Source of the DNA: Candidatus Cloacimonadaceae bacterium
Lineage (GTDB): Bacteria > Cloacimonadota > Cloacimonadia > Cloacimonadales > TCS61
Length of the DNA stretch: 64,000 nucleotides
NCBI GenBank assembly: GCA_942491655.1
Contig: CALOBL010000006.1
Coordinates: forward strand, 98,126 to 162,125
Reading direction: 5' to 3'
Of this stretch, positions 36,461-63,528 are shown one piece after another. The notes beneath the pieces are model-generated. The model searched no databases. It was not told where the DNA came from and saw only the letters and a program-made list of their open reading frames with translations. Position numbers and translations under genes: made by a program. Numbering within the stretch: the first letter of the stretch is position 1; each line of letters starts with the position of its first letter.

Positions 36461-36464
36461 GGGA

Positions 36465-36549: not shown

Positions 36550-36564
36550 TAATGGAACAAAATT

Positions 36565-41882: not shown

Positions 41883-41900
41883 AAAAAGCTAAAGTAAAAA

Positions 41901-43658: not shown

Positions 43659-43690
43659 AAACAAAGATAAATAGTTTATTTATAATAATT

Positions 43691-43722
43691 TGGACTCCTC
43701 GTTTCGAGGAGTCCATTTTTTA
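43691..43722 (+). terminator. Rho-independent terminator after the LamG/T9SS gene
   Basis: tggactcctcg-ttt-cgaggagtcca is an 11-bp perfect GC-containing stem followed by tttttt. Confidence 0.85.
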
Positions 43723-43747
43723 TAACTAAAACTACCAACAAAGATAT

Positions 43748-43823
43748 CCTGCCAGGTTTTCTATCCCTTCCGAACGGTTACGAACCTTCCGAAGGTTTTC
43801 TCCTCAAACTTATAAAATCATTG
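43748..43823 (+). repeat. Repeat family D, copy 2
   Basis: cctgccaggttttctatcccttccgaacggttacgaaccttccgaaggttttctcctcaaacttataaaatcatt, about 90% identical to D1. It lies after the LamG gene terminator. Confidence 0.75.
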
Positions 43824-43965
43824 TAATTGTCACCCTGAGTTTATCGAAGGGCGACATTGACTCATGACAATTCATTCTCATTTTTTATACTTCGACCTGT
43901 CTTCTCTGAACCACTCGAGAGTGGTTAAGAGAAGACTGGTGGTTAATAAAAGAGGTGGTTCCCAA

Positions 43966-44105
43966 GTAAAAAACGAATATGCAATCATGAATATCCAACT
44001 CCCAATGTCCAAATTTGCAGAGAACTTCATAATTGGAAATTGATGATTCGATATTGGATATTGAAAAAAGTAAAAAATCTGAATAACCAATCATGAATAA
44101 TTCAC
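43966..44105 (+). repeat. Repeat family E, copy 2 (with internal partial re-duplication)
   Basis: gtaaaaaacgaatatgcaatcatgaatatccaactcccaatgtccaaatttgcagagaacttcataatt...gattcgatattggatattgaaaaaagtaaaaaatctgaataaccaatcatgaataattcac. Confidence 0.7.
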
Positions 44106-44117
44106 TTTTCAGCATTC

Positions 44118-44186
44118 CTAAACAGGAACTGTTATCCAGCCCTGTTATCCAACAGGGTAAACAGTTTAAAAGTTTAGGAACGAGCA
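44118..44186 (+). repeat. Repeat family F, copy 1
   Basis: ctaaacaggaactgttatccagccctgttatccaacagggtaaacagtttaaaagtttaggaacgagc. Confidence 0.7.
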
Positions 44187-44499
44187 ATAGTCTTCGAATG
44201 TTCATGTTTTGCACCTTCGGAAGGGATTTTAATAAAGTGAAGTAGGTGTGATCCATTATAATGTTTTTTGCAAAAGTTATTACTCGTAGGCATAAATATT
44301 CCAGTTAAGAATAAACCCGAATTATTTTGCACCTTTTTTGAATTGACAATTAAACTTCTAAATACAATAAAAAATTATATTTTAATCTTTTTCAATATTG
44401 ACTGACTCATTATAAATATTTTTAAAATAATGTTTTATATAGAATTTAAGGATAACTTAATCTATCTGTGACGTTGTTAAAATTGATAAAGGAGGAGGG

Positions 44500-45564
44500 A
44501 TGGCTAGACTTGTTAAAAAAAGAAAACATGAAATTGGGTTAGCTCCAGATGAATTATTATTCCGTGGAGATAGAAAAACTGATAATGTATTATTGAGAGT
44601 AATTGATTTTGATTCAGAAAACAAAGAAGAAAATATAATAGAGACGGTGAGTGAAGTGTTAAAATATCAAAACAAAAAAACGGTAACCTGGTTTAATGTA
44701 GATGGCTTACACGATGAAAAAGTAATGAATGAGATCTCAAAAGGATTCCAGCTGGATAAACTTATCCTGGCAGATGTAATGAACACAAATGCCAGACCGA
44801 AAATCCAAGAATATTCCAATTGTATATTTCTATCAATTAAAATGTTACAGCAGGATGAAATATCTGGATTTATTTCAGTTGAGAATTTGAGCTTAATTTT
44901 AACTCCATCTGTATTAATTTCCTTTCAAGAAAAAAAAGGAGATGTGTTCGAACCTGTTAGGGAGAGAATTAGAAACCAAAAGAGGAGGATTAGAAGTTCT
45001 GGTATTGATTATTTAACTTTTGCTCTACTTGATGTAGTAGTAGATAATTATATATACATTATAAGTTTATTCGGGGATAAGATAGAAGATCTGGAAGAAA
45101 ATCTTCTTAAAGAACCGAAGCAAAGCGTGATTGACAAAATATATAATTACAAACAGGAACTGAATGTCTTACGAAAAAACATTAATCCCGCAAAAGAAAT
45201 GTTTCTCAATCTTTCCAAGATGGAGTCAGAGTTCATAAATGAAAACACTTTAGTTCATTTCAAAGAACTTCTGGAAAATATTAAGTTTGCAACAGAATCT
45301 TCAGATAGTTATAGAGAAATACTGTCAGATCAGTTGAATATTTACCATACTACTATTAGCAGTAAGCTAAATGATATAATGAAATTTCTAACTGTTTTTT
45401 CAGTAATTTTTATTCCACTTACATTTATTGCAGGGATCTACGGGACCAACTTCGATATATTACCAGAGCTTCATTATAAGTATAGTTACTTCATTATGGT
45501 GGGAGTAATGCTGGTGTTGGCTCTGGGAATGATAGTCTATTTCAAAAAGAAGAAATGGCTTTAA
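44500..45564 (+). CDS. corA: CorA-family divalent cation channel with a variant GTN (not GMN) signature
   Basis: 354 aa with the CorA fold pattern and two C-terminal TM helices. The loop motif FIAGIYGTNFDILPE has ggg-acc-aac at 45442-45450. A strong RBS aaaGGAGGAGGg is present. Confidence 0.85.
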   Translation: MARLVKKRKHEIGLAPDELLFRGDRKTDNVLLRVIDFDSENKEENIIETVSEVLKYQNKKTVTWFNVDGLHDEKVMNEISKGFQLDKLILADVMNTNARPKIQEYSNCIFLSIKMLQQDEISGFISVENLSLILTPSVLISFQEKKGDVFEPVRERIRNQKRRIRSSGIDYLTFALLDVVVDNYIYIISLFGDKIEDLEENLLKEPKQSVIDKIYNYKQELNVLRKNINPAKEMFLNLSKMESEFINENTLVHFKELLENIKFATESSDSYREILSDQLNIYHTTISSKLNDIMKFLTVFSVIFIPLTFIAGIYGTNFDILPELHYKYSYFIMVGVMLVLALGMIVYFKKKKWL

Positions 45565-45618
45565 ATTTGAAATGAAATATTATGTCCAAACAGAATTATT
45601 AGTGAGTGAGATATAAAA

Positions 45619-46686
45619 ATGATTAATAATCTATTAGATGGCGTTAAATCTGCAGAGATCAAGATCTTAAAAGAAGTACAGAAATTAAGCGATTCCGTGA
45701 AAGACAAGAGTCTGACAATGGTAGATAGAATTGAATCTTTTGAGGACATCATCAGCATGGAAATTGGTGATACATCACTGAATAGAGCACGTAATCTGGA
45801 AAGGGAATTTGATATCCGCCAGTTATATATTAAATATGAAGGTGAAAATCCGTCTGGAACTCAAAAAGACAGGATCGCCTTTGCCCAGGTCCATGATGCT
45901 TTCCGGAGAAGTTATGATGTAATTTCACTGGCAACTTGTGGTAACTATGGTGTGGCTGTAGCTTATGCCAGCTTTCTGGCCGGGATCAAGTGTAAGATAT
46001 TTATTCCGGAAGCTTATCATACAGAGCGCATAAAGGAAATGGAAAGCTTCGATGCTGAGATCATCAGACTGCCGGGATCTTACGAGGATGCTGTGACTGA
46101 ATCCAGCCAAATTGCTCAAGCTAAAGAATATTACGATGCAAATCCGGGAGGGCTGAACACCTCATTACAAATTTCAGCCTATGCCCAGATAGCAAATGAG
46201 ATATACGATCAATTACGGGATGCTCCTAAATATATTGCTGCCCCGGTTTCGAACGGAACATTGCTGGCAGGTGTTTTCCGCGGTTTTGTAAGTCTTAACA
46301 AACGGGGAAAGACCTCCAGGATACCTATTTTCGTTGCCGGTTCAGCAGCATTTAAGAATCCCATCATCACCTCTTTTAAAGCCGGATTAGATTATTGCCG
46401 GGATATTGATCCGAAAAAAGTAAAGGAGACGGCAATAAATGAACCCCTTATCAACTGGCACAGTTTTGATGGTGATGAAGCCTTATATGCAATTAGACAA
46501 TCGAACGGAGATGCAAGACATATAAGTGATAAAAAAATGCGTGAAATGAGTAGTTTCATTCACAAGAAAGAAGGATACAGAATTCTGCCTGCCTCTACTT
46601 CGGGACTTATAGCCCTGCTTGAAATGCATGAGCAGATGAATTTTGTTAATGACAGATATGTGGCAATTTTAACAGGAAGATATTAA
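45619..46686 (+). CDS. PLP-dependent enzyme of the tryptophan-synthase-beta/threonine-synthase-like (PALP) family
   Basis: 355 aa. PLP-lysine context ENPSGTQKDRIAF and a glycine-rich loop. The start codon is uncertain, because internal Met codons at MVDRIE and MEIGD are possible. Confidence 0.7.
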   Translation: MINNLLDGVKSAEIKILKEVQKLSDSVKDKSLTMVDRIESFEDIISMEIGDTSLNRARNLEREFDIRQLYIKYEGENPSGTQKDRIAFAQVHDAFRRSYDVISLATCGNYGVAVAYASFLAGIKCKIFIPEAYHTERIKEMESFDAEIIRLPGSYEDAVTESSQIAQAKEYYDANPGGLNTSLQISAYAQIANEIYDQLRDAPKYIAAPVSNGTLLAGVFRGFVSLNKRGKTSRIPIFVAGSAAFKNPIITSFKAGLDYCRDIDPKKVKETAINEPLINWHSFDGDEALYAIRQSNGDARHISDKKMREMSSFIHKKEGYRILPASTSGLIALLEMHEQMNFVNDRYVAILTGRY

Positions 46687-46688
46687 TT

Positions 46689-47756
46689 ATGAAAAAAACG
46701 ATTGATGGAAATGCCCTGGTCTTTGCAGATGGGGCATTTAACACCCCGAACGGGAAAACAGCTCACGGGCTGGTAAGATTTACGGAAAGATATAATATTG
46801 TTGGTGTGATCGATCACAATTATGCCGGGCAAGATGCCGGAATTGTTCTGGATAACAGGTATTCAGGTATCCCGATTTTTAATGATCTAACGGAAGCATT
46901 TCAGAAGCTGGCTCCGGAAAATAAACCTGCCACGCTGGTTATCGGTTTGGCTCCGGATGGCGGAAGACTTCCTGCCCAGGCGAGAAAGAGTATAAAAGCT
47001 GCCCTGGAAAGGGGCCTTAACGTTGATAACGGGTTACATGATTTCCTTTCTAAAGATGAAGAACTAATGGCTATCGCGGCAAAGAATAACTGCCGGGTGC
47101 GAGATATCAGAAAAACACCTGATCGGGATGAACTGCATTTCTTTACCGGTAAGATCGAAAAGGTTGATTGTCTTAAAATTGCAGTTCTTGGAACTGATTC
47201 CGCTATCGGTAAAAGAACCACTGCCTGGATTATTGTTCAGGCTTTTAGAAAAGCCGGATTGAAAGCTGAGATGGTCGGAACAGGGCAGACAGCTTGGACC
47301 CAGGGTGCAAAATATTCAATGATCATGGATAGCTGCATAAACGACTTTGTTTCGGGAGAAATTGAACATGCAGTTTATGAAGCCTGGAAAAATGAGTCTC
47401 CAGATATAATTATTATTGAAGGACAGGGAAGCCTGATGAACCCAGCCTATCCGGGAGGCTTTGAGATTCTGGCCGCCGGGAGACCGGATTATGTGATTAT
47501 TCAACATGCACCCAGAAGGAAAGAATACGATGGATTCCCGGGATATAGACTGCATTCACTTCCTGAACAGATCAATGCTATTGAAACTATTTCAGGAAGA
47601 AAAGTAATTGCCGTTACCGTTAATCATGAATTGATGAAGCAGGAAGAGATATTAAGTGAGTGTAAAAAAATTACCGAAGAAACAGGTCTGCCTGCTTATG
47701 ATGTACTTGAATACGGTTCCGAGCAACTGGTTGAATTGTTAAGGTCATATTTATAA
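46689..47756 (+). CDS. DUF1611-family protein (DgcN-like putative N-acetyltransferase)
   Basis: 355 aa. NGKTAHGLVRFTERY and the P-loop-like GTDSAIGKRTTA are typical of DUF1611. Only a 2-nt gap to the upstream gene, and the stop overlaps the epimerase start. Confidence 0.7.
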   Translation: MKKTIDGNALVFADGAFNTPNGKTAHGLVRFTERYNIVGVIDHNYAGQDAGIVLDNRYSGIPIFNDLTEAFQKLAPENKPATLVIGLAPDGGRLPAQARKSIKAALERGLNVDNGLHDFLSKDEELMAIAAKNNCRVRDIRKTPDRDELHFFTGKIEKVDCLKIAVLGTDSAIGKRTTAWIIVQAFRKAGLKAEMVGTGQTAWTQGAKYSMIMDSCINDFVSGEIEHAVYEAWKNESPDIIIIEGQGSLMNPAYPGGFEILAAGRPDYVIIQHAPRRKEYDGFPGYRLHSLPEQINAIETISGRKVIAVTVNHELMKQEEILSECKKITEETGLPAYDVLEYGSEQLVELLRSYL

Positions 47757-48820
47757 TGAAGATCACTGCAATTGAGTATTTCAGGCTTGATATGCCATTA
47801 AAATTTCCTTACACTATAGCCTACGAGGAAGTTAAGAAAACAACAAACATTATTTTAAAACTGATAACAGATAATGGCTTAACAGGATGGGGCTGTGCGG
47901 CACCCGACCTGGAAGTAACCGGTGAAACTCCGGAAAATGTTATCAATAACATTGAAACCGTAGTTACTGAACTGCTGAAAAACCAATATCCTTTTCAAAT
48001 AGAAAAAATACAAAGTATACTGAAAAGCCGTTTACCGGGTGCTCCCTCAACAAAAGCTATGGTAGATATAGCATTATACGATCTGTTGGCCAGAAAAGCA
48101 AAACTTCCGCTTTATCAGCTGCTGGGAGGATACCGGCATTCAATTGCGACGAGTATTACTATTGGAATTCTACCCCTGGAAGAAACTCTGGAGCAGGCTG
48201 AGAAATTCATTAAAGATGGTTTTTCAATCCTCAAACTTAAGGGTGGGCATAGTACGGCTGAAGATATAGAAAAAGTCATGAAGCTTCGGGAAAAACTAGG
48301 AAACGATTTTGCCCTGAGGTTTGACGCTAATCAAGGCTATTCTTTAGCAGAGTCACTACATTTCATTAATGAAACCGAAAAAGCAAATATTGAGATATTT
48401 GAGCAGCCCACCTGCCGGAAGAAAGATGAAAGAATGGGAGAGGTAACTCAGAATATAGATATTCCCGTAATGGCAGATGAAAGCATTAAAACACTTAAAG
48501 ATGCGTTCAGGCTGGCGAGTAACGACAGAATAGATATGGTAAACATTAAGCTTATGAAAATGGGCGGTATTCTTGAATCTCAACATATTAATTCCGTAGC
48601 TAAAGCAGCAGGAATGGAAGTGATGGTCGGTTGCCTGGACGAGTGTTCCCTGGGTATATCGGCAGGATTGCATTTTGCCCTTAGTCGCCCCAATATTGAA
48701 TTTGCAGACCTGGATGGTCATTTGGACTTGATGAATGATCCCTTTACTGAGCTGTTTCATCTTAAGAAAGGTATTCTCTATCCTTCTGATTCTAACGGGC
48801 TTGGTAATGTAAGACTTTAA
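47756..48820 (+). CDS. Enolase-superfamily dipeptide epimerase (L-Ala-D/L-Glu epimerase / DgcA-like)
   Basis: 354 aa. MR/MLE catalytic pattern: KxK (ILKLKGG), RFDANQGY, FEQP, MADES, NIKLMKMGG, ADLDG. Confidence 0.85.
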   Translation: MKITAIEYFRLDMPLKFPYTIAYEEVKKTTNIILKLITDNGLTGWGCAAPDLEVTGETPENVINNIETVVTELLKNQYPFQIEKIQSILKSRLPGAPSTKAMVDIALYDLLARKAKLPLYQLLGGYRHSIATSITIGILPLEETLEQAEKFIKDGFSILKLKGGHSTAEDIEKVMKLREKLGNDFALRFDANQGYSLAESLHFINETEKANIEIFEQPTCRKKDERMGEVTQNIDIPVMADESIKTLKDAFRLASNDRIDMVNIKLMKMGGILESQHINSVAKAAGMEVMVGCLDECSLGISAGLHFALSRPNIEFADLDGHLDLMNDPFTELFHLKKGILYPSDSNGLGNVRL

Positions 48821-51460: not shown

Positions 51461-51541
51461 CAATCGAGAAAGGAAATACAGGACTTGATTCGCAGCGAGT
51501 GTTTGCCCCAAATGGGCAAAATGCGAGCGTGAATCGAGGAT
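51461..51541 (+). repeat. Repeat family A, copy 2
   Basis: caatcgagaaaggaaatacaggacttgattcgcagcgagtgtttgccccaaatgggcaaaatgcgagcgtgaatcgagga. The core is roughly 85% identical to copy 1. Confidence 0.75.
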
Positions 51542-51576
51542 AAAACAGATATCTATCCCGCCTACTCTATTCACTC

Positions 51577-51622
51577 CTTCCGAAGTCCTGCCGTGGTGAA
51601 TACCATGGTTCTACTTCGGAAG
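51577..51622 (+). repeat. Repeat family C hairpin, copy 2
   Basis: cttccgaagt-cctgccgtggtgaataccatggttct-acttcggaag. A 10-bp perfect outer stem. Two stem positions differ from copy 1 on both arms in a compensatory way. Confidence 0.75.
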
Positions 51623-51901
51623 TCCAACAATGAATCAATATCTGTGGAACCGTTTCAAAGCAGAAGCTTCGTAACGAGGGCAATTAAAGAAGCTGATTTA
51701 AAAGGTTCGTTACCGGTTCGTAAAAGTTCGTTGCTAAAAAGTAAAAAACCGATGGATGTATGTAATGACAGCGTAAATCCGAGTTAATTCTATTCAGAAA
51801 ATCCCTTAAATTCCTGATGATTATGCTTCAGAAAAACTAAATATTCTTATTGACTGAAAACAACTTTAGAAAAAAGTTATTGTGTTTTTAGGGGAGGTTC
51901 A

Positions 51902-53452
51902 ATGTCTATCAGGAACAAAATTGCTGAACTTAGAGAAAACCGCGAAAAAGCACTTCAAGGCGGTGGTGAAAAAAGGATCGAAGCCCAGCATAAAAAAGGT
52001 AAACTCACCGCCAGAGAACGAATAGAATTATTGATCGATAAAGACAGCTTTGAAGAATTCGACATGTTTGTAAAACACCAGTGTAAAGATTTCGGCATGG
52101 AAAAACTCAGTTTTCCGGGGGATGGTGTGGTAACCGGTTGCGGGACGATTGACGGCAGGATGGTCTATCTCTACGCTCAGGATTTCACAGTGATCGGCGG
52201 CTCCTTGTCGAAAACACATGCTGCTAAAATCTGCAAAGTAATGGAAATGTCTGTTAAAATGGGTGCTCCCTGTATTGGACTGAACGATTCCGGTGGAGCC
52301 AGAGTACAGGAAGGTGTTGATGCACTGGCCGGCTATGCCGATATTTTCCTGCGCAATGTAATGGCTTCGGGAGTTGTTCCTCAGATCTCTGCCATTATGG
52401 GACCCTGCGCCGGAGGAGCTGTTTATTCTCCAGCAATCACGGATTTTGTGATCATGAACCAGGAAACCAGCTACATGTTCGTTACCGGCCCCAAGGTTGT
52501 GAAGACAGTTTTGAATGAAACCATTTCCACCGAAGATCTGGGCGGAGCACTTATCCACGCCTCAAAAAGCGGTGTCGCTCATTTTCTTACTACTAACGAA
52601 GAAGAGACCATTCTACTAATTCGTAACCTGGTAAGCTATTTACCTTCCAATAATCTGGAACAACCTCCTTATCGTCCCACAAAAGATACGATCGACCGCA
52701 GATGTGAAGAACTCAATGACCTGATTCCCGATAACGCTAATAAACCATATGATATCCTGGATGTTATCTCCAGTATTGTTGATGATGGGGAATTTCTGGA
52801 AGTTGCCAGGAATTTCGCGCAGAATATAGTTGTTGGCTTCGCCAGGATGCACGGACAGAGCATCGGGATAGTGGCCAATCAACCTAAGTTTATGGCCGGT
52901 GTGCTGGATATAAATGCTTCGATTAAAGCAGCCCGATTTGTTCGTTTCTGTGATGCCTTCAACATACCGCTGGTTGTATTGGAAGATGTACCTGGCTTCA
53001 TGCCTGGCTCCAACCAGGAACACAACGGAATTATCAGGAATGGAGCTAAACTGCTCTACGCTTTCGCTGAAGCAACCGTTCCCAAAATAACCGTTATTCT
53101 GCGAAAAGCTTACGGCGGAGCTTATTGTGTAATGAACAGCCGTCACATGAGAGCCGATATCGTTTACGGCTGGCCTACAGCTGAAATTGCTGTTATGGGA
53201 CCCAAGGGAGCAGTAGAGATAGTCTTCTATAAAGATACAAAAAATGCCGAGGATCCAGAACAACTTCTGCAGGAAAAAGAACAGGAATACCGGGATAAAT
53301 TTGCCAATCCTTACCGGGCTGCTGAAAAAGGCTATATAGACGATATTATTGAACCGGCTGCCACCAGGTTCAGGATAATTCGATCCCTGGAAATGCTGGC
53401 TACCAAAAAAGATTCCAACCCGCCTAAAAAACACGGAAATATTCCTCTTTAA
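51902..53452 (+). CDS. mmdA: Methylmalonyl-CoA decarboxylase alpha subunit (acyl-CoA carboxyltransferase, PccB/12S type), intact
   Basis: 516 aa with full-length carboxyltransferase similarity ([56 protein letters not shown]). RBS aGGGGAGG. Confidence 0.9.
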
Positions 53453-53462
53453 GGGTGGTGGC

Positions 53463-54059
53463 ATGAGAAAATTTATTTTTCTTATACTGATCTTTCTTCC
53501 CTTACTGCTTTCAGCTGAAAATAATGAGGTGGATAAACTGGACTCAGTTTTTCCTCAGATCAGTCTGGCCGAAACCGCCTTCCAATTAGAGATCCCCGTA
53601 AAACAATTGAAGATCTATCTGCAGCTTGATCCAGCTACCGATTCTGCCCTTACTCTGGAAGAATTACACATCAGTAAAAAAGCTGTCAGTAAGGCCCTGT
53701 CAGAATACAATGGATCAAAACACTCTTTTTATTTTGGCATAATCGTTGTTGGAATGCTCATAGTTTTTGCCAGCCTTATCATTGTAGGGCTTATCATAAA
53801 TCGAATGCAGAGCCTGAAACACCTCGACAGAAAGCCTGGATCTGCAGACAAAAAAACTAACGTTACTGCTATAAATGGGGAAAAACCCAGTCAGAACGAT
53901 ATCATCGCTGCCATTACAACCGTTTATCTGCATGAACTGGAAGCAGAAGAACAAAGCAGACTCCTGCTTACATGGAAACGTGCTTCACTAAGTTTATGGA
54001 GTGCATCAGGAAAATTCAATATGCCCAACCGGGTCTTCTTTAAAGAATTGAGGAGATAA
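53463..54059 (+). CDS. OadG-like membrane subunit of the Na+-decarboxylase (delta/gamma-type), extended N-terminus
   Basis: 198 aa. Signal/anchor, then the TM helix FGIIVVGMLIVFASLIIVGLII, then IIAAITTVYLHELEAEE...LTWKRASLSLWSASGKF. This resembles the OadG-family tails I recall from Bacteroidota-type operons. Operon position also supports the call. Confidence 0.55.
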   Translation: MRKFIFLILIFLPLLLSAENNEVDKLDSVFPQISLAETAFQLEIPVKQLKIYLQLDPATDSALTLEELHISKKAVSKALSEYNGSKHSFYFGIIVVGMLIVFASLIIVGLIINRMQSLKHLDRKPGSADKKTNVTAINGEKPSQNDIIAAITTVYLHELEAEEQSRLLLTWKRASLSLWSASGKFNMPNRVFFKELRR

Positions 54060-54060
54060 C

Positions 54061-54486
54061 ATGAAAACTTATAAATTTATTATCAACGATCAAAAATACA
54101 AGACCAGGATCCTGGAATATAAAGGGGACAACATCAGAGTAGAGGTCAATGGCATTGAATATAAAGTTGAAGTGGAGTCGGAAAGCACATCTGCAATGCC
54201 CAGACTTGTCCGGTCTGAAAAGCCCCAAGCTAATCTGTCTAACTCTATAAAGATCGATCACAATTCCGGAGCAAATGGAATTAAGGCACCTATCCCCGGG
54301 CTTGTTCATACTCTGCTGGTGAAGGAAGGAGATAAGATAGAAAAAGGGCAACCCCTGCTGATCCTGGAAGCAATGAAAATGGAATCCGAGATCTCTGCAA
54401 ATTCTTCCGGAACGGTCAGCAAGATCCTGGTTAAAGAAGGTGATACAATTCAGGAAGGACAGATCCTGATCGAGATCGGAGCATAA
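54061..54486 (+). CDS. mmdC: Biotin carboxyl carrier subunit
   Basis: 141 aa. The C-terminal biotinyl domain has LEAMKMESEI (biotinylated Lys in the AMKM motif). Confidence 0.85.
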   Translation: MKTYKFIINDQKYKTRILEYKGDNIRVEVNGIEYKVEVESESTSAMPRLVRSEKPQANLSNSIKIDHNSGANGIKAPIPGLVHTLLVKEGDKIEKGQPLLILEAMKMESEISANSSGTVSKILVKEGDTIQEGQILIEIGA

Positions 54487-54487
54487 C

Positions 54488-55603
54488 ATGAACGAAATGC
54501 TCAATTTCTTCTCTACTACAGGAATTGCCCAGCTGAACCTGTCTTATCTCGCTATGCTGCTCATCGGTTTCTTCTTTATTTATCTGGGAATTTCCAAAAA
54601 TTATGAACCCCTCCTGCTGGTTCCGATCGGATTCGGCATTGTGCTGGGTAATCTGCCGGGAACCTACGGTGTCTATTTTCAGAATTCTGTGATGAACCTG
54701 CTCTATTTCGGAGTGACCTCCGGCATCTATCCGCCTCTTATCTTTCTGGGCCTTGGTGCAATGACCGATTTTTCCACTCTTATTGCTAATCCTAAATTGA
54801 TCTTGCTGGGCGCTGCTGCCCAGTTCGGGATATTTGCAACTTTTATAGGTTCCCTGCAACTGGGGTTTAATGTTCTGGAAGCCGGAGCCATCGGGATTAT
54901 TGGTGGTGCCGATGGACCTACCTCTATCTTCCTCTCATCTCAACTGGCTCCTCACCTGGTCGGCCCCATTGCTATTGCAGCCTATTCCTATATGGCTCTC
55001 GTACCGGTGATACAACCTCCGATCATAAAACTTCTTACAACTAATAAAGAAAGACGCATCAGAATGAAAACCCCGCGCCTGGTTACCAAACGGGAAAAAA
55101 TTCTCTTCCCGATCATCGCTGCAGTTGTAACAATCCTTATCGCCCCGGGTGCCTCCGCTTTGCTGGGCATGCTCTTTTTCGGTAATCTGCTTAAAGAAAG
55201 CGGTGTCACAGAAAGACTGGCCAAATCAGCCCGTAACGCTCTTATCGATATCGTAACTATTGTGCTGGGCCTGACCGTTGGTGCCAGTACTCAGGCTGAT
55301 GTTTTCCTGCGGGTAGATTCGGTTAAAATATTCGGGTTAGGTGCTTTTTCATTCTGCATTGCCACGGCAACCGGCTTGCTTTTCGCTAAACTGATGAACC
55401 TCTTCCTGAAAGAAAAGATCAACCCCATGATCGGTGCATCAGGTGTGTCGGCTGTGCCGGACAGTGCCAGAGTTGTCCACCATGTGGGTCAACAATACGA
55501 TAAAGATAATTACCTGCTGATGCATGCCATGGCTCCCAATGTGGCCGGTGTGATCGGTTCTGCCGTAGCTGCCGGTGTACTTCTGGGAATATTGGGGAAT
55601 TAA
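54488..55603 (+). CDS. mmdB: Na+-translocating decarboxylase beta subunit (OadB/MmdB/GcdB family)
   Basis: 371 aa polytopic membrane protein. Conserved IGIIGGADGPTSIF and SGVSAVPDSARV regions. Confidence 0.9.
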   Translation: MNEMLNFFSTTGIAQLNLSYLAMLLIGFFFIYLGISKNYEPLLLVPIGFGIVLGNLPGTYGVYFQNSVMNLLYFGVTSGIYPPLIFLGLGAMTDFSTLIANPKLILLGAAAQFGIFATFIGSLQLGFNVLEAGAIGIIGGADGPTSIFLSSQLAPHLVGPIAIAAYSYMALVPVIQPPIIKLLTTNKERRIRMKTPRLVTKREKILFPIIAAVVTILIAPGASALLGMLFFGNLLKESGVTERLAKSARNALIDIVTIVLGLTVGASTQADVFLRVDSVKIFGLGAFSFCIATATGLLFAKLMNLFLKEKINPMIGASGVSAVPDSARVVHHVGQQYDKDNYLLMHAMAPNVAGVIGSAVAAGVLLGILGN

Positions 55604-55679
55604 TTATTCACGGGTTTTTATAATTTAGAATATTAACAAAGCTCAATTGGAATTCAATCTGTATTGTTATTTTTTCTCT

Positions 55680-56480
55680 TCTGCCCCTTGATCCTTGATC
55701 TTTGGTCCAACCATGTTCTATCTTCCACCTTCTATCTTCCATCTACTCTCTACTGTCTACGACCTTCTATCTTCTGCCTTCCCTCTACTGTCTTACAACT
55801 CTTTGATGTTCCAGTAAAGATTCGAATGAACAGGTAAAGGAATATTGAGAGATTTCCTTCAGTCTAATTCCAGACTTCAATACGATACTAAATCTGTCGG
55901 AGTTAACAGATAATCTTCTTCTTCTTTAAGGTCCAAAATTCCGCAAATATCTTCTAATGTCTTCCGTCTTCAATGCTTTCAGCATTCTAGCAGTCTACTG
56001 TCAGTCAACTGTACATACAGACCTTCTATGCTTCTGCCTGATCCCTCTACTGTCTTCAAACTGTAACCTTTGCGAAGGTCTCTTACATTGAAACGATTCG
56101 TCGCAGTAGCCGGACATAGTCCGCAAGTTTCTGATATACTTCCGTCTTTCGTCTACTCTCTAAACCCTCGAATCTTTTTCTGAAGGTTGGATCTTCGATG
56201 CCTATAAATTCATCAAGATACTATTCCGAAGGTTAGAAATCTTTAGTAATTATAGATAATTATATGCTGATCCCTTCGTACCTCTCGACAAAAAAGCTCC
56301 TGCCTCCGTTCGAGTATTTATACTGAAAATACCGTCAAGTAAGACAGGATGCACAGAAATTCAAGGACAGATTTTATCGATAAAAATTTCATATTTTTCT
56401 TCATGTTCTTTTATATTTTTTCTTCCGTCTACACTCTACCCTCTACCTTCCATCTTCCTCCTACCCCCTACCGTTTAGCC
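55680..56480 (+). repeat. Pyrimidine-rich (C/T) tract array with recurrent TCTAC-containing motif (family H)
   Basis: Motif instances include gtctactctc, tctactgtct, gtctacgacc, ctctactgtct (x2), gtctactgtca, gtctactctct and gtctacactctaccctctacc. A ~40-nt unit gaccttctat(g)cttctgcct..ccctctactgtctt.aaact occurs at about 55762-55800 and about 56020-56062. A reverse-complement relative lies at 15708-15745. Confidence 0.65.
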
Positions 56481-56580
56481 TGGTAAAAATGGTTCGCATT
56501 TTCAAAATTTCATAAAGATGCTTTACACATTTTAGAAAAAATAGATCAAGTAACCTCAAAATAAATTTAAAGAAAATATT

Positions 56581-57480
56581 ATGAATGAATTCTTCCAGAA
56601 GATCATACCAGTCATCCTCATCTTCTTTTTGGGGATTTTACTCAAAAAGATCAAAGTGCTTAGGAACAGTGATAGCGATCTGCTGCTCAAACTGGTTTTC
56701 TATGTCTGCCTGCCATCTCTCACTATTGTTTCTACCCAGAAAGTGATCCTGGTCTGGCAACACCTTTACATCCCAGCCATACCTATTGTAATTGTTATCT
56801 TTACTTATTTCCTTTCTTACATCATCAGTAGCTGCCTCAAGATCAGCCGTCAGACTAAAGGTACCTTCATGGTCGGTTCCATGATCATGAATACTGCCTT
56901 CGTTTTCCCCTTCGTTCTATCAGCTTATGGCGAGAAAGGCTTTGCCTTTGCCACGATCTTTCAGTTCGGTACCGGACTCTCCATTTTTACCTTCATTTAT
57001 TACATCGCCATGCGTCACTCTCCTCAGGCCGGGAAAGGGATCAAACTAAAGAAATTTTTACTGCTGCCCCCCATCTGGGCCCTTGTCAGCGGTATAATTC
57101 TCAATCTCAGTGGAGCAGGACTTCCCGCTCTTCTGGAAAATTTCTTCCAACTGCTGGGGCTCCCCACCATTCCACTGGTCATGCTCTCTCTCGGGGTATA
57201 TTTCAAACCCAGAGCTAAAAACATCAATCGCATCCTGCTGGTCTTTATGATCCGCATCCTGGGCGGTTTTCTTGTCAGCATGTTCCTCACTTCGTTGCTG
57301 CAGATCGAAGGTATGATCCGAACTGTAATCGTCCTATGTGCCTCGGCTCCGGTTGGCTATAACACCCTCGTTTTTTCTACCCTGGAGAACCTGGATAAGG
57401 AGTTTGCCGCCAATCTTGTCTCCATTTCCCTCATTCTGGGTATGGTCTATATTCCATTGCTGGTTTTTCTTTTAGGTTAA
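56581..57480 (+). CDS. AEC (auxin-efflux-carrier / Mem_trans) family transporter
   Basis: 299 aa with about 10 TM helices and the typical AEC N-terminus (IIPVILIFFLGILLKK). Confidence 0.8.
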   Translation: MNEFFQKIIPVILIFFLGILLKKIKVLRNSDSDLLLKLVFYVCLPSLTIVSTQKVILVWQHLYIPAIPIVIVIFTYFLSYIISSCLKISRQTKGTFMVGSMIMNTAFVFPFVLSAYGEKGFAFATIFQFGTGLSIFTFIYYIAMRHSPQAGKGIKLKKFLLLPPIWALVSGIILNLSGAGLPALLENFFQLLGLPTIPLVMLSLGVYFKPRAKNINRILLVFMIRILGGFLVSMFLTSLLQIEGMIRTVIVLCASAPVGYNTLVFSTLENLDKEFAANLVSISLILGMVYIPLLVFLLG

Positions 57481-57515: not shown

Positions 57516-58788
57516 GTGAAAATTAATCTGGCTTACGGAAAAGAAACACAAAATGTTAAGGTGAATCCTGACACTACCGCTGTGATCTCGCTGCCCGGTG
57601 CTAAACAAGCTGCCCCATTGTCAGAAATAACCGCCGCTGCGTTAAATAATCCTACTGGATCAGCATCAATAAAAGATTTTCTGCAAAATTGCCGCACCTT
57701 GCTGGTAATTGTTAATGACAGTACAAGGGGCATACCTTCAGCTCAATTGCTGGAACATCTTTACCCCCACTGGCAGCATCTGGAAGTAAAATACATTGTT
57801 GCGACAGGAGCCCATCGTCACTCCACAGAATTAGAACTTGAAAAAATATTCGGCTCGATCTATCACACATCCAGAAAAAACATCTACATACATGACGCAG
57901 AAAATGATGAAATGACAGAATTCGGTGTAACCAGCTTCGGTACTCCTGTAAAATTTAACCGTATCATCACAAAAGTGGATAAGATCATTAACCTTAATTC
58001 AGTTGAACCACACTATTTTGCCGGCTATACCGGCGGCCGTAAAAGTTTTCAACCCGGTATTGCTGCTTATCAGACAATCGAAATCAATCACTCTCTGGCT
58101 ATGCAGCCGGGATCTTCCCTGCTTGAACTGCAGGGCAACCCTGTTCACGATGATATGATGGAAGCGGTTGAAATGATAGAGAAGGAGATTTTCTCGATCA
58201 ATACGGTTTTGAACAGTAAAAATGAAATAATTGCTGCTGTTGCCGGCAACTGGAAAAATTCCTTTTATGAAACAGTTAAAATTGCTGAAAAGATTTTTCT
58301 CCAACCTTGTTCAATCAGGCAGACATAGTCATTGCGGTCGTCCGACCTCCTTTGGATGAAGATCTTTATCAGGCTCAGAAAGGCATTGAGAATTGTCGGA
58401 AAATCCTGAAAAAAAATGGTATCCTGATCCTGGTAGCTGCCTGTCCGGGCAGGGATCGGGAAAGACAAGTTCTATCAGCTGTTCAGCTCCTGTCAGTACG
58501 CCTCAGGAAGTATTCAAACAGCATTGCGGAATCCTATAAGCTGGGTTACCATAAAGCTGCCAGGCTGGCAGAATTCACTATCGATCACCAGCTCTGGATG
58601 GTTACAGATATTCCGCGAACTCTGTTGGATAAAATCAACATAAGTAAATTTACTTCAGTTCATACAGGCTCTGGATGATGCGTTCTCACTCAAAGGGAAA
58701 AAGCCGGATTATTATCAATCAGGATGCCGGTATGCTGGTTCCTGTAAGCCTGGAAGGGCTTGAAAAAATAATTTCTGCCCCATTATAA
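57516..58788 (+). pseudogene. LarA-like (DUF2088, nickel-pincer 2-hydroxyacid racemase family) gene with ~6 frameshifts
   Basis: GTG start after GGAGG. The N-terminal ORF has LarA motifs (VNDSTRGIPS, ATGAHRHST, GYTGGRKS). The C-terminal half can only be read by hopping frames. Reconstructed pieces: ADIVIAVVRPPLDEDLYQAQKG..LVAACPG / AGIGKDKFYQLFSS / TPQEVFKQ / IAESYKLGYHKAARLAEF...KFTSV / QALDDAFSLKGKKPDYY / INQDAGMLVPVSLEGLEKIISAPL*. Confidence 0.7.
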
Positions 58789-58951
58789 TTGCACTATAAG
58801 CTAAACTAAACCTATAGGGGCATGTCTGGTGTTACAGCGTGCCTCATGAGGAGTAAAGACAGTTTTTTGCTTTACACATTTACTAACCCAGAAAATTGTT
58901 ACCCCATATTAAAGATTGAAGTTAAATTGTATTAAAAAACAGGAGTTAATA

Positions 58952-60516
58952 ATGAAAATTTCTGAGAAAATAGAGGCTTTAGCAAAAAAAGAAGCTAAAA
59001 TTAAAGAAATGGGCGGCGAAACCAGAATTACTAAACAGCACGATAAAGGTAAACTGACCGCCAGAGAAAGACTGGATCTGCTTTTTGATGCAGGATCATT
59101 CCGCGAGATCGACATGCTGGTAAAACATAGATCAACCAATTTTAATATGCCGGAAACAGAGATACCTTCGGATGGAGTTGTTACAGGGCACGGTTTGGTT
59201 AACGGGAAACCGGTATTCGCTTATGCCCAGGATTTTACCTCCCGCGGTGGCTCACTGGGAGAAAAACATGCCGGTAAGATAGTCAAAATTATGGATCTGG
59301 CTATGAAAGCCGGTGTTCCCATCATCGGAATGAATGATTCCGGTGGAGCCAGAGTCGAGGAAGGAATTGATTCACTGAAAGGTTATGGAGATATTTTCTT
59401 CCGCAATTCCAGAGCTTCCGGTGTAATTCCCCAGATCTCAGTAATTATGGGACCTTGTGCCGGTGGCGCAGTTTATTCTCCTGCTATGACAGATTTTATT
59501 CTGATGGTGGAAAAAACAGCTCACATGTTCATCACCGGACCTTCCGTAATTAAAACAGTTACCGGTGAGGAAACCGATTTCGAAGAGCTGGGCGGTGCCA
59601 TGACTAATAACGCCAGAAGCGGTAATGCTCATTTTGCCTGTGAAAGCGATGAAGCAGCTATCGAACAGGTTAAACTGATCCTCAGCTATCTTCCAGATAA
59701 TAATCTGGAAGATCCTCCTTTCCAACATTCCTGGTAACAGATGATCCAGCCAGATTGTGTCCTGAACTTGGATACGATTATCCCTGATAATCCTAAAGCT
59801 GGTTATGATATGAAAAATGTAATCCAGTCAGTTTTTGATAATGGTGAATTCTTTGAAATTCATGAATATTATGCTCAGAATGCAGTCATTGGTTTGGCCG
59901 GTTGAATGGCAGACCGGTAGGAATTATTGCCAATCAACCGATGGTTTTGGCTGGCTGTCTGGATATTAATGCTTCCGATAAAATCTCACGTTTTATCCGT
60001 TTCTGTGATGCCTTTAATATTCCATTATTGGTTCTAGAGGACGTACCAGGCTTTTTACCTGGTACGGATCAGGAATGGAATGGTATTATACGACATGGAG
60101 CAAAATTGTTCTGGAGTTATTCGGAAGCCACTGTTCCTAAATTGAATGTTACTACCCGAAAAAGTTATGGTGGTGCCTACATCGCCATGAGTTCTCAACA
60201 CCTGGGAAATGATATGGCTTTTGCCTGGCCCTCAGCTGAAATTGCTGTAATGGGTGCTCAGGGAGCTGTGAATATAGTTTCCAGTTATAAACGGAACGCA
60301 ATTAAAGAAGCCAAAGATCCGGAAGCAAAACGACAGGAACTGATCAAAGAATACGAAGCTAAATTCAATACACCTTATATTGCAGCAGAAAGAGGCTATA
60401 TAGATGCAGTGATCAAGCCGGCTGAGACAAGATTGAGGCTTATCGACGCCCTTGAGATCATGTATACCAAGAAAGATATTCTGCCAGCAAAAAAACACGG
60501 AAATATTCCACTTTAA
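58952..60516 (+). pseudogene. Second acyl-CoA carboxyltransferase (12S/PccB type), paralog of mmdA, with at least 3 frameshifts
   Basis: AGGAG RBS then ATG 58952 (MKISEKIEAL...). The paralog aligns throughout with 51902..53452. The segment TDDPARLCPEL / [43 protein letters not shown] / [14 protein letters not shown] needs shifts near 59725-59745, 59768-59775 and 59895-59905. Confidence 0.8.
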
Positions 60517-60524
60517 GAGATAAT

Positions 60525-60716
60525 ATGAAAGACAAAACAAAAAAACTTAAAGCTGCCATGATGGGAGTGATTTATTTCCTGCAGCAGGAAGAAGAGCAAA
60601 GAGATGATTCCGCGATAACACCTGGTCCCGCTCCAGCATGGGGACATTATGCAGATAAAGAATATGCGTACACAAGATGCTTTGGTCAACGACTGGCAGA
60701 GAAAATAATTAATTAA
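60525..60716 (+). CDS. Small hypothetical protein resembling the soluble tail of OadG-like subunits
   Basis: 63 aa between the 12S-like and 5S-like genes. LKAAMMGVIYFLQQEEEQ...ITPGPAPAW resembles IIAAITTVYLHELEAEE...LTW of 53463..54059. This is weak, by-eye evidence only. Confidence 0.3.
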   Translation: MKDKTKKLKAAMMGVIYFLQQEEEQRDDSAITPGPAPAWGHYADKEYAYTRCFGQRLAEKIIN

Positions 60717-60731
60717 AGACGGAGGAAATAA

Positions 60732-62338
60732 ATGACTTTTGATAAACACGGCGTTTTGGAAATGACCAAAATGAATTACGATCCAAATCGACCCAAAGCA
60801 AAAAATCCCATTAAGATTCAAGACTTAAGTTTCAGAGACGGACATCAATCACTTTTTGCAACTCGTGGCAGAACTGAAGATATGCTGCCTGTAGCAGAAA
60901 TGATGGATGATATCGGTTTTTATTCCTTGGAAATGTGGGGTGGAGCTACATTTGACACGATGCATCGCTATTTGAACGAAGATCCCTGGGAAAGAATTAG
61001 AACCTTAAAAAAACACATAAGAAAACACCTTTTTCTATGCTGCTGCGTGGACAGAATGTTGTAGGCTACCGAAATTATGCTGATGATGTTGTGGAAGCTT
61101 TCGTACAGAGCAAGTGATAATGGCATCGATATTTTCCGTGTTTTTGATGCTCTCAACGATTTCCGTAATTTCCAAACTGTTGTAAAAGTGATCAAAAGGA
61201 ACAACAAACATTTCCAGGGAACGATCTGCTATTCTCTCACAGAACCCCGCATGGGTGGAGAAACTTATAACCTGGATTATTATTTGAAGAAAGCCAAACA
61301 GTTGGAAGAACTTGGTGCTGATACGATCTGCATTAAGGATATGGCAGGGCTCATGGTGCTCCTTATGATGCCTATAATCTAGTTAAGGCTCTAAAAGAAC
61401 TTACTGATATTCCAATCCATCTTCATACACACTTCACTTCCGGGATGGGAGATCTTACACTTTTCAAAGCAATTGAAGCAGGTGTGGACATCATTGATAC
61501 ATGCATGGCACCTTATGCCTACAGAACTTCTCATCCTGCTGTGGAGCCTCTTGTTATCTCACTTCTGGGAACAAACCGCGACACTGGATTAGATATCAAA
61601 AAGCTGGCTGAGATTGGCAAAGAAATGGAGAAGATCATTCCAAAATACAAACATTTTGCCAATAATACAAAATTCAGCATCATCGATACAAATGTGATCC
61701 TGCACCAAACTCCGGGAGGTATGCTCTCCAACCTGGTTAATCAACTGAAACAGATGGATGCTCTTGATAAATTAGATGAAGTTTTCGAAACATTACCAAA
61801 AGTTAGAAAAGAACTCGGTCAGGTTCCATTAGTTACACCCACAAGTCAGATCGTTGGTATTCAAACGGTTAATAATGTTTTGTTCGATAAAGATGAAGCA
61901 TATTCCAATATTACGGAACAGGTGAAAGACCTTTGTTTTGGATTGTATGGCAAGACAACACTTCCCATTGATGAAAAGGTACGTAAGAAAGCTTTAAAGG
62001 GATATCCACGTGGTGAGACTCCCATAACTAAACGACCTGGAGATCTACTCGAACCTGAACTTCCAAAAGTAAAGAAGGAATTTAAGGGTCTGGCTAAAAA
62101 CATAGATGATGAAATACTTTGTGCATTATATCCTGTTACAGGAAGAAAATTCTTAAGCTACAAATATGGTCTGGAAGAAGTTCCAGATGATGTGAAACCA
62201 AAAACTCTGGAACAAGTGGAAGCAGAAGATGAACTAGTTCGTAAAGCACTTTCCGGGGAACTGACTGTCAAAAAAGATAAACCAGCTAATACTAGAGCCT
62301 TTGACGTTTATGTGGATGGCCAGGAGTTCAGAAAATAA
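60732..62338 (+). pseudogene. Oxaloacetate decarboxylase alpha / transcarboxylase 5S-type carboxyltransferase (HMGL-like TIM barrel, no biotinyl domain) with at least 3 frameshifts
   Basis: [19 protein letters not shown]...WGGATFD in frame 1. [30 protein letters not shown] in frame 2. [17 protein letters not shown]...ICIKDMAGL in frame 3. APYDAYNLVKALKELTDIPIHLHTHFTSGMG... runs to the stop in a further frame. Shifts lie near 61010-61035, 61100-61115 and 61345-61365. Confidence 0.8.
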
Positions 62339-62545
62339 ATAAAAAAGAAATATAAAATAGCCACCTTTTTCATTCCTGTCATTCACTCATTGGTGGTAAA
62401 AAAACTGTTTTGTTTATTCCAGAGGATAAACGGGACAAGCAGTTCGAGGTACTATTGATGGCTAATTTAAGGTTTCCAGTAGTTGATGGTATACATCAAG
62501 GTATAAATGATCCGGTAATTATATTAGTAGAAACATTATGGGTTC

Positions 62546-62652
62546 CAAAACAGGAACTGTTATGCAACAGTTTAAAAGTTTAGGAACCAGCGGATCCTGT
62601 TATTCAGCCCTGTTATCCAAAAGGGTAAACAGGTTAAAAGTTTAGGAACCAG
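62546..62652 (+). repeat. Repeat family F, copy 2 (internally duplicated)
   Basis: aaaacaggaactgttatgcaacagtttaaaagtttaggaaccag + cggatcctgttattcagccctgttatccaaaagggtaaacaggttaaaagtttaggaaccag. Confidence 0.7.
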
Positions 62653-62739
62653 TATCAACAGGGAGTATGGGAATCAGCATCGAAAGTTATGCAGTCTGTG
62701 AAATTCTCTGTGCTTCTTTGGGTCATTGCTTCTGAGGTC

Positions 62740-63528
62740 TTACTCTACTATTTTATCCAGCCAGTAGCTGTTGATGAATTTATAATTCTTTTTCAGTTTA
62801 CTGCCCACCAAGTCTGCTTCCGCCTTACTGTAAGGGTCTACAAGTCTTAACCTATAATAAGTGGTTCCATCCTTATTAAATTCAATGACCTTCAGCTTAT
62901 ATCCTTCCGATTCCAGAAATTGTTTGGTAGTCTCAATTTTTTCCAGTTCAGTATTTGCCATGATCTGGATCTCATATCTGATGACATCGGGTCGGACAGG
63001 AGGTGTTAATGGTTTTTCCTCAACATCTTTGCTTATTTCAGGTTCTGTAGTTTCTTCAGCTAGAAATTCTTCGGATATTTCTTCTGATTTGCCATCTGAG
63101 ATTTTTTCGATCCAGTATGAATGAATTTCGTCGTATTTATCTTTGATCTCTTCACCCAGCAGAATTGCATCTTCCCGGGTCAGCTGTTTGTCTATGATTA
63201 AAGAATAAATTAGTTTGTTTGCTCTTTTTGATTCTTTTATCTTAACTGGAAAACCATTCAAACTCATTAATTCCTTGTTGTTAAGAACAATATTCTTGTC
63301 GGTCGAGATCATTACGCAGGTTTCATAAAGTTCAGCAGCGGAAGCAGTCGTTGAATCTGCAGCCAACTGTCCTGCTCCAGCTTCTACTGAGAGAGAATCT
63401 GACTTTTTAGCTTCAGCTCTTTTATTCGAAAGCTGATAGGTGATATTGGCAAACATTAAAGCTAAAACTATTGAAGCTACCCCAATCAGTAGAATCAGTA
63501 TGTTTCTTGTATACTTATTGTCTTCCAT
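62740..63528 (-). CDS. Membrane-anchored SPOR-domain protein
   Basis: 262 aa. N-terminal TM anchor (ILILLIGVASIVLALMF). The C-terminal segment IRYEIQIMANTELEKIETTKQFLESEGYKLKVIEFNKDGTTYYRLRLVDPY is SPOR-like. An earlier, weaker SPOR-like repeat is also present. Confidence 0.7.
   Translation of the reverse strand: MEDNKYTRNILILLIGVASIVLALMFANITYQLSNKRAEAKKSDSLSVEAGAGQLAADSTTASAAELYETCVMISTDKNIVLNNKELMSLNGFPVKIKESKRANKLIYSLIIDKQLTREDAILLGEEIKDKYDEIHSYWIEKISDGKSEEISEEFLAEETTEPEISKDVEEKPLTPPVRPDVIRYEIQIMANTELEKIETTKQFLESEGYKLKVIEFNKDGTTYYRLRLVDPYSKAEADLVGSKLKKNYKFINSYWLDKIVE

Follow-up and report, generated by a model that had tools for sequence, protein, structure and literature searches.

The window analyzed here, 64,000 nucleotides (nt) of contig CALOBL010000006.1 from the assembly of a Candidatus Cloacimonadaceae bacterium, contains a gene cluster encoding a LarA homolog, a 12S-like carboxyltransferase, a small conserved open reading frame (ORF), and a 5S-like carboxyltransferase, in which short insertions and deletions (indels) repeatedly break the reading frame. 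Upstream of the cluster lie an intact transporter gene and an intact mmdA/OadG-like/mmdC/mmdB operon, which is predicted to encode a decarboxylase of the Na+-translocating methylmalonyl-CoA type (Table 1). The best genomic relatives of the window are metagenome-assembled genomes (MAGs) of the Cloacimonadota, and the host is a member of the Cloacimonadota. The relatives used for comparison are designated L001, L081, L082, L083, L084, L165, and L166.

In these relatives, the cluster runs from the Mem_trans (AEC transporter) gene through a LarA homolog of 408 to 419 amino acids (aa), a 12S protein of 518 aa, and an ORF of 55 to 61 aa to a 5S protein of 632 to 639 aa that includes a fused biotinyl domain. 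The cluster lies directly 3' of mmdA/OadG/mmdC/mmdB in L081, L082 to L084, and L165, and the LarA-12S-5S part is also present in L001 and L166. Each of its genes is one open frame in L001, L082 to L084, L165, and L166, and in L081 the operon is intact except for one frameshift in the 5S gene. The cluster is also widespread among database homologs, many of them labeled as Cloacimonadota, and high conservation in this group has been described for methylmalonyl-CoA decarboxylase and for the step from oxaloacetate to pyruvate (bioRxiv 10.1101/2025.11.11.687785).

The gene families proposed in an earlier reading of the window, which was made from the letters and translated ORFs without database searches (the sequence-only reading), were recovered in Pfam and NCBIfam searches. 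These comprise the LarA homolog, the 12S/MmdA-type and 5S/PycB/OadA-type carboxyltransferases, and the intact Na+-pumping operon next door, which matched TIGR01117 and TIGR01109. This operon served as the undamaged control: its mmdA, OadG-like, mmdC, and mmdB products share 91%, 70%, 75%, and 96% aa identity, respectively, with their L081 orthologs, with zero frameshifts. Fragments of the LarA-like gene matched PF09861 (159 bits) and PF21113 (29 bits). The best NCBIfam match of this gene was the malate racemase model LarAH6 (NF052593), at 339 bits under the cutoff of 500, and the NCBIfam search gave no assignment to a specific equivalog (lactate or malate racemase). The 12S-like gene scored 825 bits on the mmdA model TIGR01117, compared with 839 bits for the true mmdA, both being under the cutoff of 999. 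The 5S-like gene scored 614 bits on NF006761 (cutoff, 402), covering positions 3 to 465 of 591, and matched PF02436 (PYC_OADA) as well as the oadA and PycB models of NCBIfam; precomputed Pfam annotations of its homologs contain PF00682 and PF02436. When stitched across the indels, the proteins are highly conserved, as the sequence-only reading had stated, with 88% identity between the 12S-like protein and the intact protein P0001 and 93% identity between the 5S-like protein and its best database homolog.

Judged by its subunit types, the 12S/5S cluster is a predicted transcarboxylase-type module lacking biotin carboxylase and pump subunits, and by analogy it would work like the 12S/5S/biotin-carrier module of the Propionibacterium enzyme. 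The cluster shares with the methylmalonyl-CoA:pyruvate transcarboxylase of Propionibacterium freudenreichii (12S, 5S, and 1.3S subunits) the pairing of a 12S protein with a 5S protein (HMGL-like plus PYC_OADA), and both are without a biotin carboxylase and a membrane beta subunit. They differ in the carrier, which is a separate 1.3S subunit in P. freudenreichii, is fused to 5S in the Cloacimonadota relatives, and is missing as a domain in the window. The AEC transporter, the LarA homolog, and the 55- to 61-aa ORF are additions of the Cloacimonadota cluster. The Na+ decarboxylases MmdABCD and OadABG resemble the cluster in that its 12S-like protein scores almost as well as mmdA on TIGR01117 and its 5S-like protein fits the oadA and PycB models, but the damaged cluster is without genes for the beta (Na+ pump) and gamma subunits, which in the window belong to the intact operon.

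TABLE 1 Features of the locus, with positions in the window, strand, and supporting evidence
Feature	Position	Strand	Evidence
mmdA/OadG-like/mmdC (biotin carrier)/mmdB operon, intact	51902..55603	+	TIGR01117 mmdA, TIGR01109 Na_pump_decarbB (NCBIfam)
ORF6N-family remnant, decayed	55604..56580	+	Comparison with L081 6711-7632
AEC/Mem_trans transporter gene, intact; first cluster gene in relatives	56581..57480	+	Pfam PF03547; 82% identity to L081, zero frameshifts; 100% identity to protein P0121
LarA homolog (nickel-pincer 2-hydroxyacid racemase family); 6 indels, all in last third	57516..58788	+	Pfam Lar_N and LarA_C on fragments
Indel patch, four clumps	58307..61355		Indel placement, range and clumping tests
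12S/MmdA-type carboxyltransferase; 3 indels	58952..60516	+	Pfam Carboxyl_trans (PF01039), profile positions 1-235, 245-289, and 291-493 across three fragments
Small conserved ORF in the 12S-5S interval; 3 to 4 indels	60525..60705	+	Three-frame comparison with L081 and L082
5S/PycB/OadA-type carboxyltransferase; 3 indels, biotinyl domain absent	60732..62338	+	NCBIfam NF006761; Pfam PYC_OADA
Noncoding stretch replacing biotinyl (BCCP)-coding DNA, flanks syntenic	62339..62739		blastn versus L081 and L165
Palindromic intergenic repeat, two adjacent copies	62540..62660		Self-comparison; second site at 44100-44200
Conserved downstream gene, intact; far edge of damaged region	62740..63528	-	62% identity to L081, zero frameshifts; synteny with L081 and L165

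Frameshifts in the LarA-12S-5S cluster

Frameshifts were counted by frameshift-tolerant protein-to-DNA alignment against orthologs from L001, L081, L165, and L082, and the indels were placed by MAFFT nucleotide alignment to three mutually agreeing relatives. Each of the four references gave 6, 3, and 3 frameshifts for the LarA-like, 12S-like, and 5S-like genes, respectively, and zero in-frame stops in the stitched frames. The sequence-only reading had arrived at about 6, at least 3, and at least 3 frame changes in these genes and had likewise seen no in-frame nonsense codons. The frameshifts that it listed are real, but its tally over three genes was a slight undercount, as the small ORF between the 12S-like and 5S-like genes adds 3 to 4 more. 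A fortuitous 63-aa ORF is open there at 60525 to 60716, and the conserved 61-aa ortholog (ending in ...NTWARSSRETIMHNRMAVQSRSFGLRWQRK) is spread over three frames of the window by 3 to 4 single-base indels at approximately 60616, 60640, 60658, and 60693, with 3 shifts seen against both L081 and L165.

The indels of the LarA-like gene were placed at 58307 (-1), 58451 (+1), 58497 (+1, an extra T at a CAG/ACG boundary), 58522 (+1, an extra C at a CAG/ATT boundary), 58666 (+1), and approximately 58697 (+1 in an A run, or -2). Those of the 12S-like gene are at approximately 59724 to 59732 (+5), 59770 (+1), and 59897 (-1, GGG to GG); the first lies in a linker of variable length, where the loss of 1 nt together with a natural length difference of two codons fits equally well. 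Those of the 5S-like gene are at 61018 (-1), 61107 (-2, AG in CAGAGAG), and 61355 (+2). Across the four genes there are therefore approximately 15 to 16 frame-breaking indels, of 1 to 2 nt with the single exception of the 5 nt in the 12S linker; gains and losses of bases are balanced, and the genes contain no deletions of medium or large size. Translation continued out of frame meets stop codons, such as those at 58328, 59737, 61064, and 61382. Roughly half of the indels lie outside homopolymers, and the homopolymer errors suggested in the sequence-only reading are not borne out by this pattern. Several of the insertions follow CAG, an observation that is post hoc, depends on ambiguous gap placement, and is given no weight. 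Methylation motifs were considered at the indel sites, and with the contexts judged by eye, GATC or CCWGG was near only two of them.

With 16 of approximately 21 events of the window falling in 4.8 of its 64 kb (binomial P = 1.5e-14), the indel density of the cluster is approximately 30 times the window background and rises to approximately 50 times inside a patch of 3 kb. All of the approximately 16 indels fall at 58307 to 61355 (3.05 kb), which leaves 790 nt at the start of the LarA-like gene and 980 nt at the end of the 5S-like gene free of them. Within the patch they form four clumps (58307 to 58700, 59724 to 59897, 60616 to 60693, and 61018 to 61355) separated by clean coding gaps of 1.0, 0.7, and 0.3 kb. 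Compared with a uniform spread over 57516 to 62338, the distribution deviates in its range (P = 0.007), its variance-to-mean ratio in 100-nt bins (P = 0.0004), and the sum of its three largest gaps (P = 0.011). The sequence-only reading gave a density of about one frameshift per 400 bp over the 4.8 kb of the three genes; by the range test, the indels do not fill these genes, and their distribution tracks a physical patch that starts and ends within genes. Operon-wide relaxation of selection would be expected to spread indels uniformly over the genes, and a poor stretch of consensus would be expected to leave a patch.

Across the patch, nucleotide identity between the window and three relatives rises and falls with that among the relatives themselves, which rules out a foreign or recombinant origin of the patch. 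A mix-up with the paralogous mmdA is an unlikely cause, as the two share only 65 to 67% nucleotide identity. A locus from the same species that would allow comparison of the indels was not found, the best match among genome contigs being 82% and the metagenome matches listed for the LarA fragment being relatives at 40 to 49%.

The 3' end of the 5S-like gene

The 5S-like gene of the window ends with ...AFDVYVDGQEFRK* at a stop at 62338, which corresponds to approximately residue 534 to 536 of the 632- to 639-aa orthologs. Homology to L081 and L165 in blastn halts at 62319 and restarts at 62750 to 62756, at the end of the downstream gene. In the relatives, the corresponding interval holds the linker and biotinyl domain (approximately 320 nt) followed by a spacer of 55 to 260 nt. 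The approximately 400 nt at 62339 to 62739 in the window align locally to the relatives with scores equal to those of shuffles, and three-frame translation revealed no biotinyl domain in any frame of this stretch. The shuffle-level scores rule out a heavily error-laden BCCP sequence in 62339 to 62756. Among the 120 closest 5S homologs (80 to 93% identity), 119 are 626 to 658 aa long and contain PF00364 (Biotin_lipoyl), the exception lying on a contig of 2.6 kb. The only biotin carrier in the window is mmdC (54061 to 54486); the 12S/5S module, which has a carrier in the relatives, contains none in either the 5S-like gene or 62339 to 62739 of the window.

This lineage has probably truly lost the biotinyl domain, because base-calling error does not create a structural difference of this kind, and the loss is the one element of the locus described here that probably reflects biology. 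On the simplest reading, the carrier-coding segment was deleted beside a lineage-specific, repeat-bearing spacer. The spacer contains the palindromic repeat listed in Table 1, of which 62597 to 62652 is 93% identical over 56 nt to 44129 to 44184, and an internal direct repeat (62566 to 62590 and 62628 to 62652). Long imperfect hairpins are predicted for the repeat (z = -5.3 and -5.1), which has no Rfam match. A scan of 62250 to 62800 gave no terminator-like site, and promoter-like matches were no more frequent than expected from shuffles.

Substitutions, constraint, and the origin of the frameshifts

Amino acid changes unique to the window or to L081, with L082 as the outgroup, were counted in codon alignments of the relatives and the stitched genes. 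These lineage-specific counts and the counts of altered invariant codons are preferred here over the ratio of nonsynonymous to synonymous substitution rates (dN/dS), since synonymous sites are saturated (dS of >1) against the nearest relative, which leaves dN/dS little power to detect recent relaxation. Unique changes in the window and L081 numbered 27 and 27 in LarA, 20 and 24 in 12S, and 26 and 69 in 5S, and in the control genes they numbered 15 and 16 (mmdA), 2 and 5 (mmdB), and 9 and 9 (Mem_trans transporter). The window is altered at 22 of the 863 codons that are invariant in 3 to 4 relatives, and each intact relative, when left out in turn, is altered at the same number or more. Altered invariant codons are no denser near the lesions, with 2 of 160 within 45 nt of an indel and 11 of 424 inside the patch compared with 9 of 279 outside it. 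The dN/dS check that the sequence-only reading had proposed for the stitched ORFs gave 0.156 for LarA, 0.062 for 12S, and 0.078 for 5S between the window and L081 (intact neighbors, 0.01 to 0.11), showing no relaxation, but with the power limited by the saturated dS. Relaxed constraint in the damaged genes was thus not found by the relative-rate comparison, by the invariant codons (22 of 863 being background), or by stops, of which there are zero. The description of the damage as indel-only holds for stops and replacements but leaves out the missing C-terminal biotinyl domain of the 5S-like gene.

The substitutions expected to accompany real decay can be estimated from mutation-accumulation lines, in which small indels arise at approximately 0.18 to 0.22 per substitution even without mismatch repair and in which the spontaneous indel rate grows exponentially with homopolymer length (PMC8510543). 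At this ratio, 16 indels would be accompanied by 73 to 90 substitutions. Simulation on the stitched genes translated these into 31 to 38 extra replacements at invariant codons and 2.6 to 3.2 stops, with a probability of 0.03 to 0.07 of observing no stop; the observed excess of replacements is zero, as is the number of stops. Decay under approximately 0.5% divergence is invisible to substitution tests, and these results exclude ordinary decay accompanying 16 indels but not a very recent event. The indels also do not match the spontaneous-mutation spectrum, which is homopolymer biased and includes larger deletions (compare PMC8510543); the single large lesion is the loss of the BCCP-coding segment of approximately 320 nt.

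The frameshift cluster is quite probably a locally unpolished or low-coverage patch of consensus rather than a set of mutations carried by the organism, and it is most likely not in itself a biological feature. A technical origin is what we infer from the sequence comparisons, the assembly being of an error-prone and probably long-read type. The approximately 16 frameshifts would then be residual consensus errors across approximately 3 kb (58.3 to 61.4 kb), for which locally low coverage, collapsed strain variants, and failed polishing are candidate causes, and the genes would be intact in the cell, encoding proteins 80 to 93% identical to those of the relatives. The signature is that of consensus error because the damage consists only of indels, which are 1 to 2 nt long, mixed in sign, in arbitrary contexts, and confined to a patch that ignores gene boundaries, with isolated frameshifts elsewhere in the window and conservation of the encoded proteins. 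Scattered frameshifts in conserved genes of the window indicate either that the assembly is error prone or that the genome holds scattered frameshifts. The source contig, at 282 kb, is of a length that would fit long-read data. The record name of L081, contig_89952, suggests a long-read assembler, and the 5S gene of L081 is also frameshifted. Leftover indels and frameshifts have been documented for MAGs and long-read assemblies, as has their survival at sites where polishing fails (PMC9262707, PMC8812927, and bioRxiv 10.1101/2021.08.23.457338). The patch resembles such errors in its gene splits of 1 to 2 nt, the conservation of the protein, the absence of substitutions, its patchiness, and the frameshifts in other genes of the contig. 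It differs in its high density relative to the window background and, from the classical nanopore signature, in its balance of insertions and deletions and its share of indels outside homopolymers.

Several observations weigh against a consensus error. The residual errors typical of nanopore data are mostly deletions in homopolymers (PMC9262707); the indels here, in contrast, are balanced in sign and in many cases lie outside homopolymers. The damage is wholly within one operon, with the flanking transporter and downstream genes clean, and selection would also yield damage to one operon between clean genes. A decayed ORF6N pseudogene lies 1 kb upstream, and because of this remnant, real decay must be accepted as occurring in the neighborhood. 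The loss of the biotinyl domain, in the damaged operon itself, is not explained by base-calling error.

The sequence-only reading had left two explanations undecided, and of these, a local sequencing or assembly problem is favored here, and decay of a redundant module is disfavored by the lack of excess substitutions, stops, large indels, and a rise in dN/dS and by a patch that ignores genes. Genuine and very recent pseudogenization, in which the module was disabled by loss of the carrier or rendered superfluous by the Na+-pumping decarboxylase and then, with selection lifted, accumulated indels, is unlikely but is the rival with the most in its favor: the biotinyl domain that is fused in 119 of the 120 closest 5S homologs has been replaced by nonhomologous, repeat-bearing DNA, every indel lies within one operon between intact flanking genes, an intact paralogous decarboxylase operon with its own biotin carrier adjoins, and a truly decayed gene is found just upstream. 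Pseudogenes of neutral decay, such as those of host-restricted pathogens and the ORF6N remnant, share with the cluster multiple frame lesions, redundancy of the genes, a nearby intact paralogous system, and a 3' loss of the size of a domain. They differ in their nonsense codons, excess replacements, raised dN/dS, and in-gene deletions of more than 2 nt, and the lesions of the window follow the patch. The ORF6N remnant shows what real decay next door looks like, with a stop, frameshifts, and large nonhomologous patches, unlike the damaged operon. Bacterial pseudogenes usually carry longer deletions as well, and here all of the approximately 16 indels are of 5 nt or less, with no medium or large deletions within the genes. 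Pseudogenization at the ordinary ratio also predicts 31 to 38 replacements and approximately 3 stops where there are no excess substitutions or stops at all. It fits poorly with clumping within 3 kb that spares the opening 790 nt of LarA and also the final 980 nt of 5S, the latter lying closest to the putative primary lesion, and with the many insertions outside homopolymers, which are rare as spontaneous mutations.

A real mutational shower, in which error-prone repair (such as double-strand-break synthesis accompanying the rearrangement in which the biotinyl domain was lost) added indels of 1 to 2 nt in one or a few events, would account for damage that is indel-only, tightly clustered 1 to 4 kb to one side of the junction at approximately 62.33 kb, and free of accompanying substitutions, an absence that gradual decay cannot explain. 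It is nevertheless very improbable, as no indels occur in the 1 kb adjoining the junction, the same pattern is a routine signature of unpolished consensus, and the scattered frameshifts elsewhere already point to an error-prone assembly or to a genome with scattered frameshifts; to our knowledge, there is no precedent for approximately 16 frameshifts from one repair event in a natural bacterial genome. Functional recoding, by which programmed ribosomal frameshifting or transcriptional slippage would allow full proteins to be made, finds some support in the shift at 61018, 12 nt downstream of an A7 run. It is effectively refuted because the shift sites are conserved in no relative, all of which have single open frames there; the approximately 16 shifts are moreover of both signs, occur in four genes, and are mostly not at slippery sequences.

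If the frameshifts are consensus errors, the contig would wrongly report a Cloacimonadota genome lacking the transcarboxylase-type module and the LarA homolog. The affected steps, which involve methylmalonyl-CoA and oxaloacetate, have been discussed for syntrophic propionate metabolism in Cloacimonadota (bioRxiv 10.1101/2025.11.11.687785). Frameshift-aware checks are needed when such MAGs are used to reconstruct pathways or to count pseudogenes, and the combination of a relative-rate test, invariant codons, the size and context spectrum of the indels, and a gene-boundary test offers a recipe for separating artifact from decay without reads. If the damage is real, the locus would capture with unusual clarity either the earliest stage of gene death or a mutational burst confined to indels; a shower would mean that a core carboxylase operon, conserved universally apart from this case, was inactivated in a wild, uncultured member of the Cloacimonadota too recently for substitutions to have followed.

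Other features of the window

The ORF6N-family remnant between the decarboxylase operon and the transporter gene is a real, old pseudogene. The corresponding gene of L081 is intact, and the remnant aligns to it only in parts, at approximately 41 to 42% aa identity, and contains 1 stop and 4 frameshifts; overall nucleotide identity is 47%, with islands of approximately 80%. The span from 44.5 to 57.5 kb, described in the sequence-only reading as free of frameshifts, therefore contains a damaged gene. The islands alternate with co-linear, nonhomologous, pyrimidine-rich patches of the CTCTAC/CTTCC type, in which CTCTACTGTCT occurs three times, and they are conserved far beyond what saturated dS would allow neutral DNA. 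Stretches of at least 80% pyrimidine occur in the window only at 55714 to 55796 and 56385 to 56482. The only stretch of at least 80% purine, at 15693 to 15781, has 79% reverse-complement identity to 56392 to 56448 and lies within 880 nt without long ORFs.

Elsewhere in the window there are approximately four split genes, or approximately one per 15 kb, close to the five or so frameshifts that the sequence-only reading had estimated for the rest of the window. An FGGY kinase gene (23648 to 25163, minus strand) is split at FGGY_N positions 95/119. In a Macro-domain gene (25471 to 25960, minus strand), the first approximately 40 profile positions are in another frame, apparently because of an extra A in caaaatc. 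An ATP-cone/PRK kinase gene (31618 to 32960, minus strand) is split at approximately PRK position 60, and a gene for a Laminin_G_3 protein (42197 to 43658, plus strand), whose T9SS sorting domain is separated, is probably split. The exonuclease gene at the window end has zero frameshifts compared with L081.

The 55- to 61-aa ORF lies in the 12S-5S interval of all of the relatives and was placed at 60525 to 60705 in the window, 13926 to 14111 in L165, 11566 to 11751 in L081, and 11567 to 11734 in L082. Its consensus is MKxKTKKLKAA..GV..FLQQE...W.RSSRETIM.NR....R.FG..W.RK. The window ORF has no match in Pfam and the L165 ortholog has none in NCBIfam; the product is a candidate small subunit of the complex. 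In L081 (ENA contig_89952), the frameshift at 13201 in the 5S gene (11773 to 13688) splits 488 aa from a biotinyl part of 131 aa. This 5S gene also has an excess of lineage-specific replacements (69, compared with 26 in the window), and the L081 assembly may carry errors too.

No tRNA genes and no Rfam families above the gathering threshold were found in scans of the 64-kb window. Further dispersed and tandem repeat families (40 to 110 nt, 79 to 95% identical) occur at 23284 to 23633, 36382 to 36949, 41681 to 41975, 43675 to 44104, and 51481 to 51632, all in stretches without long ORFs. Paired copies include 23526 to 23633 with 23284 to 23392, 43748 to 43822 with 41681 to 41754, and 51481 to 51540 with 36489 to 36548. 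Four consecutive plus-strand ORFs at 44500 to 48820 encode 354, 355, 355, and 354 aa and show no mutual nucleotide similarity in self-comparison, despite their nearly equal lengths.

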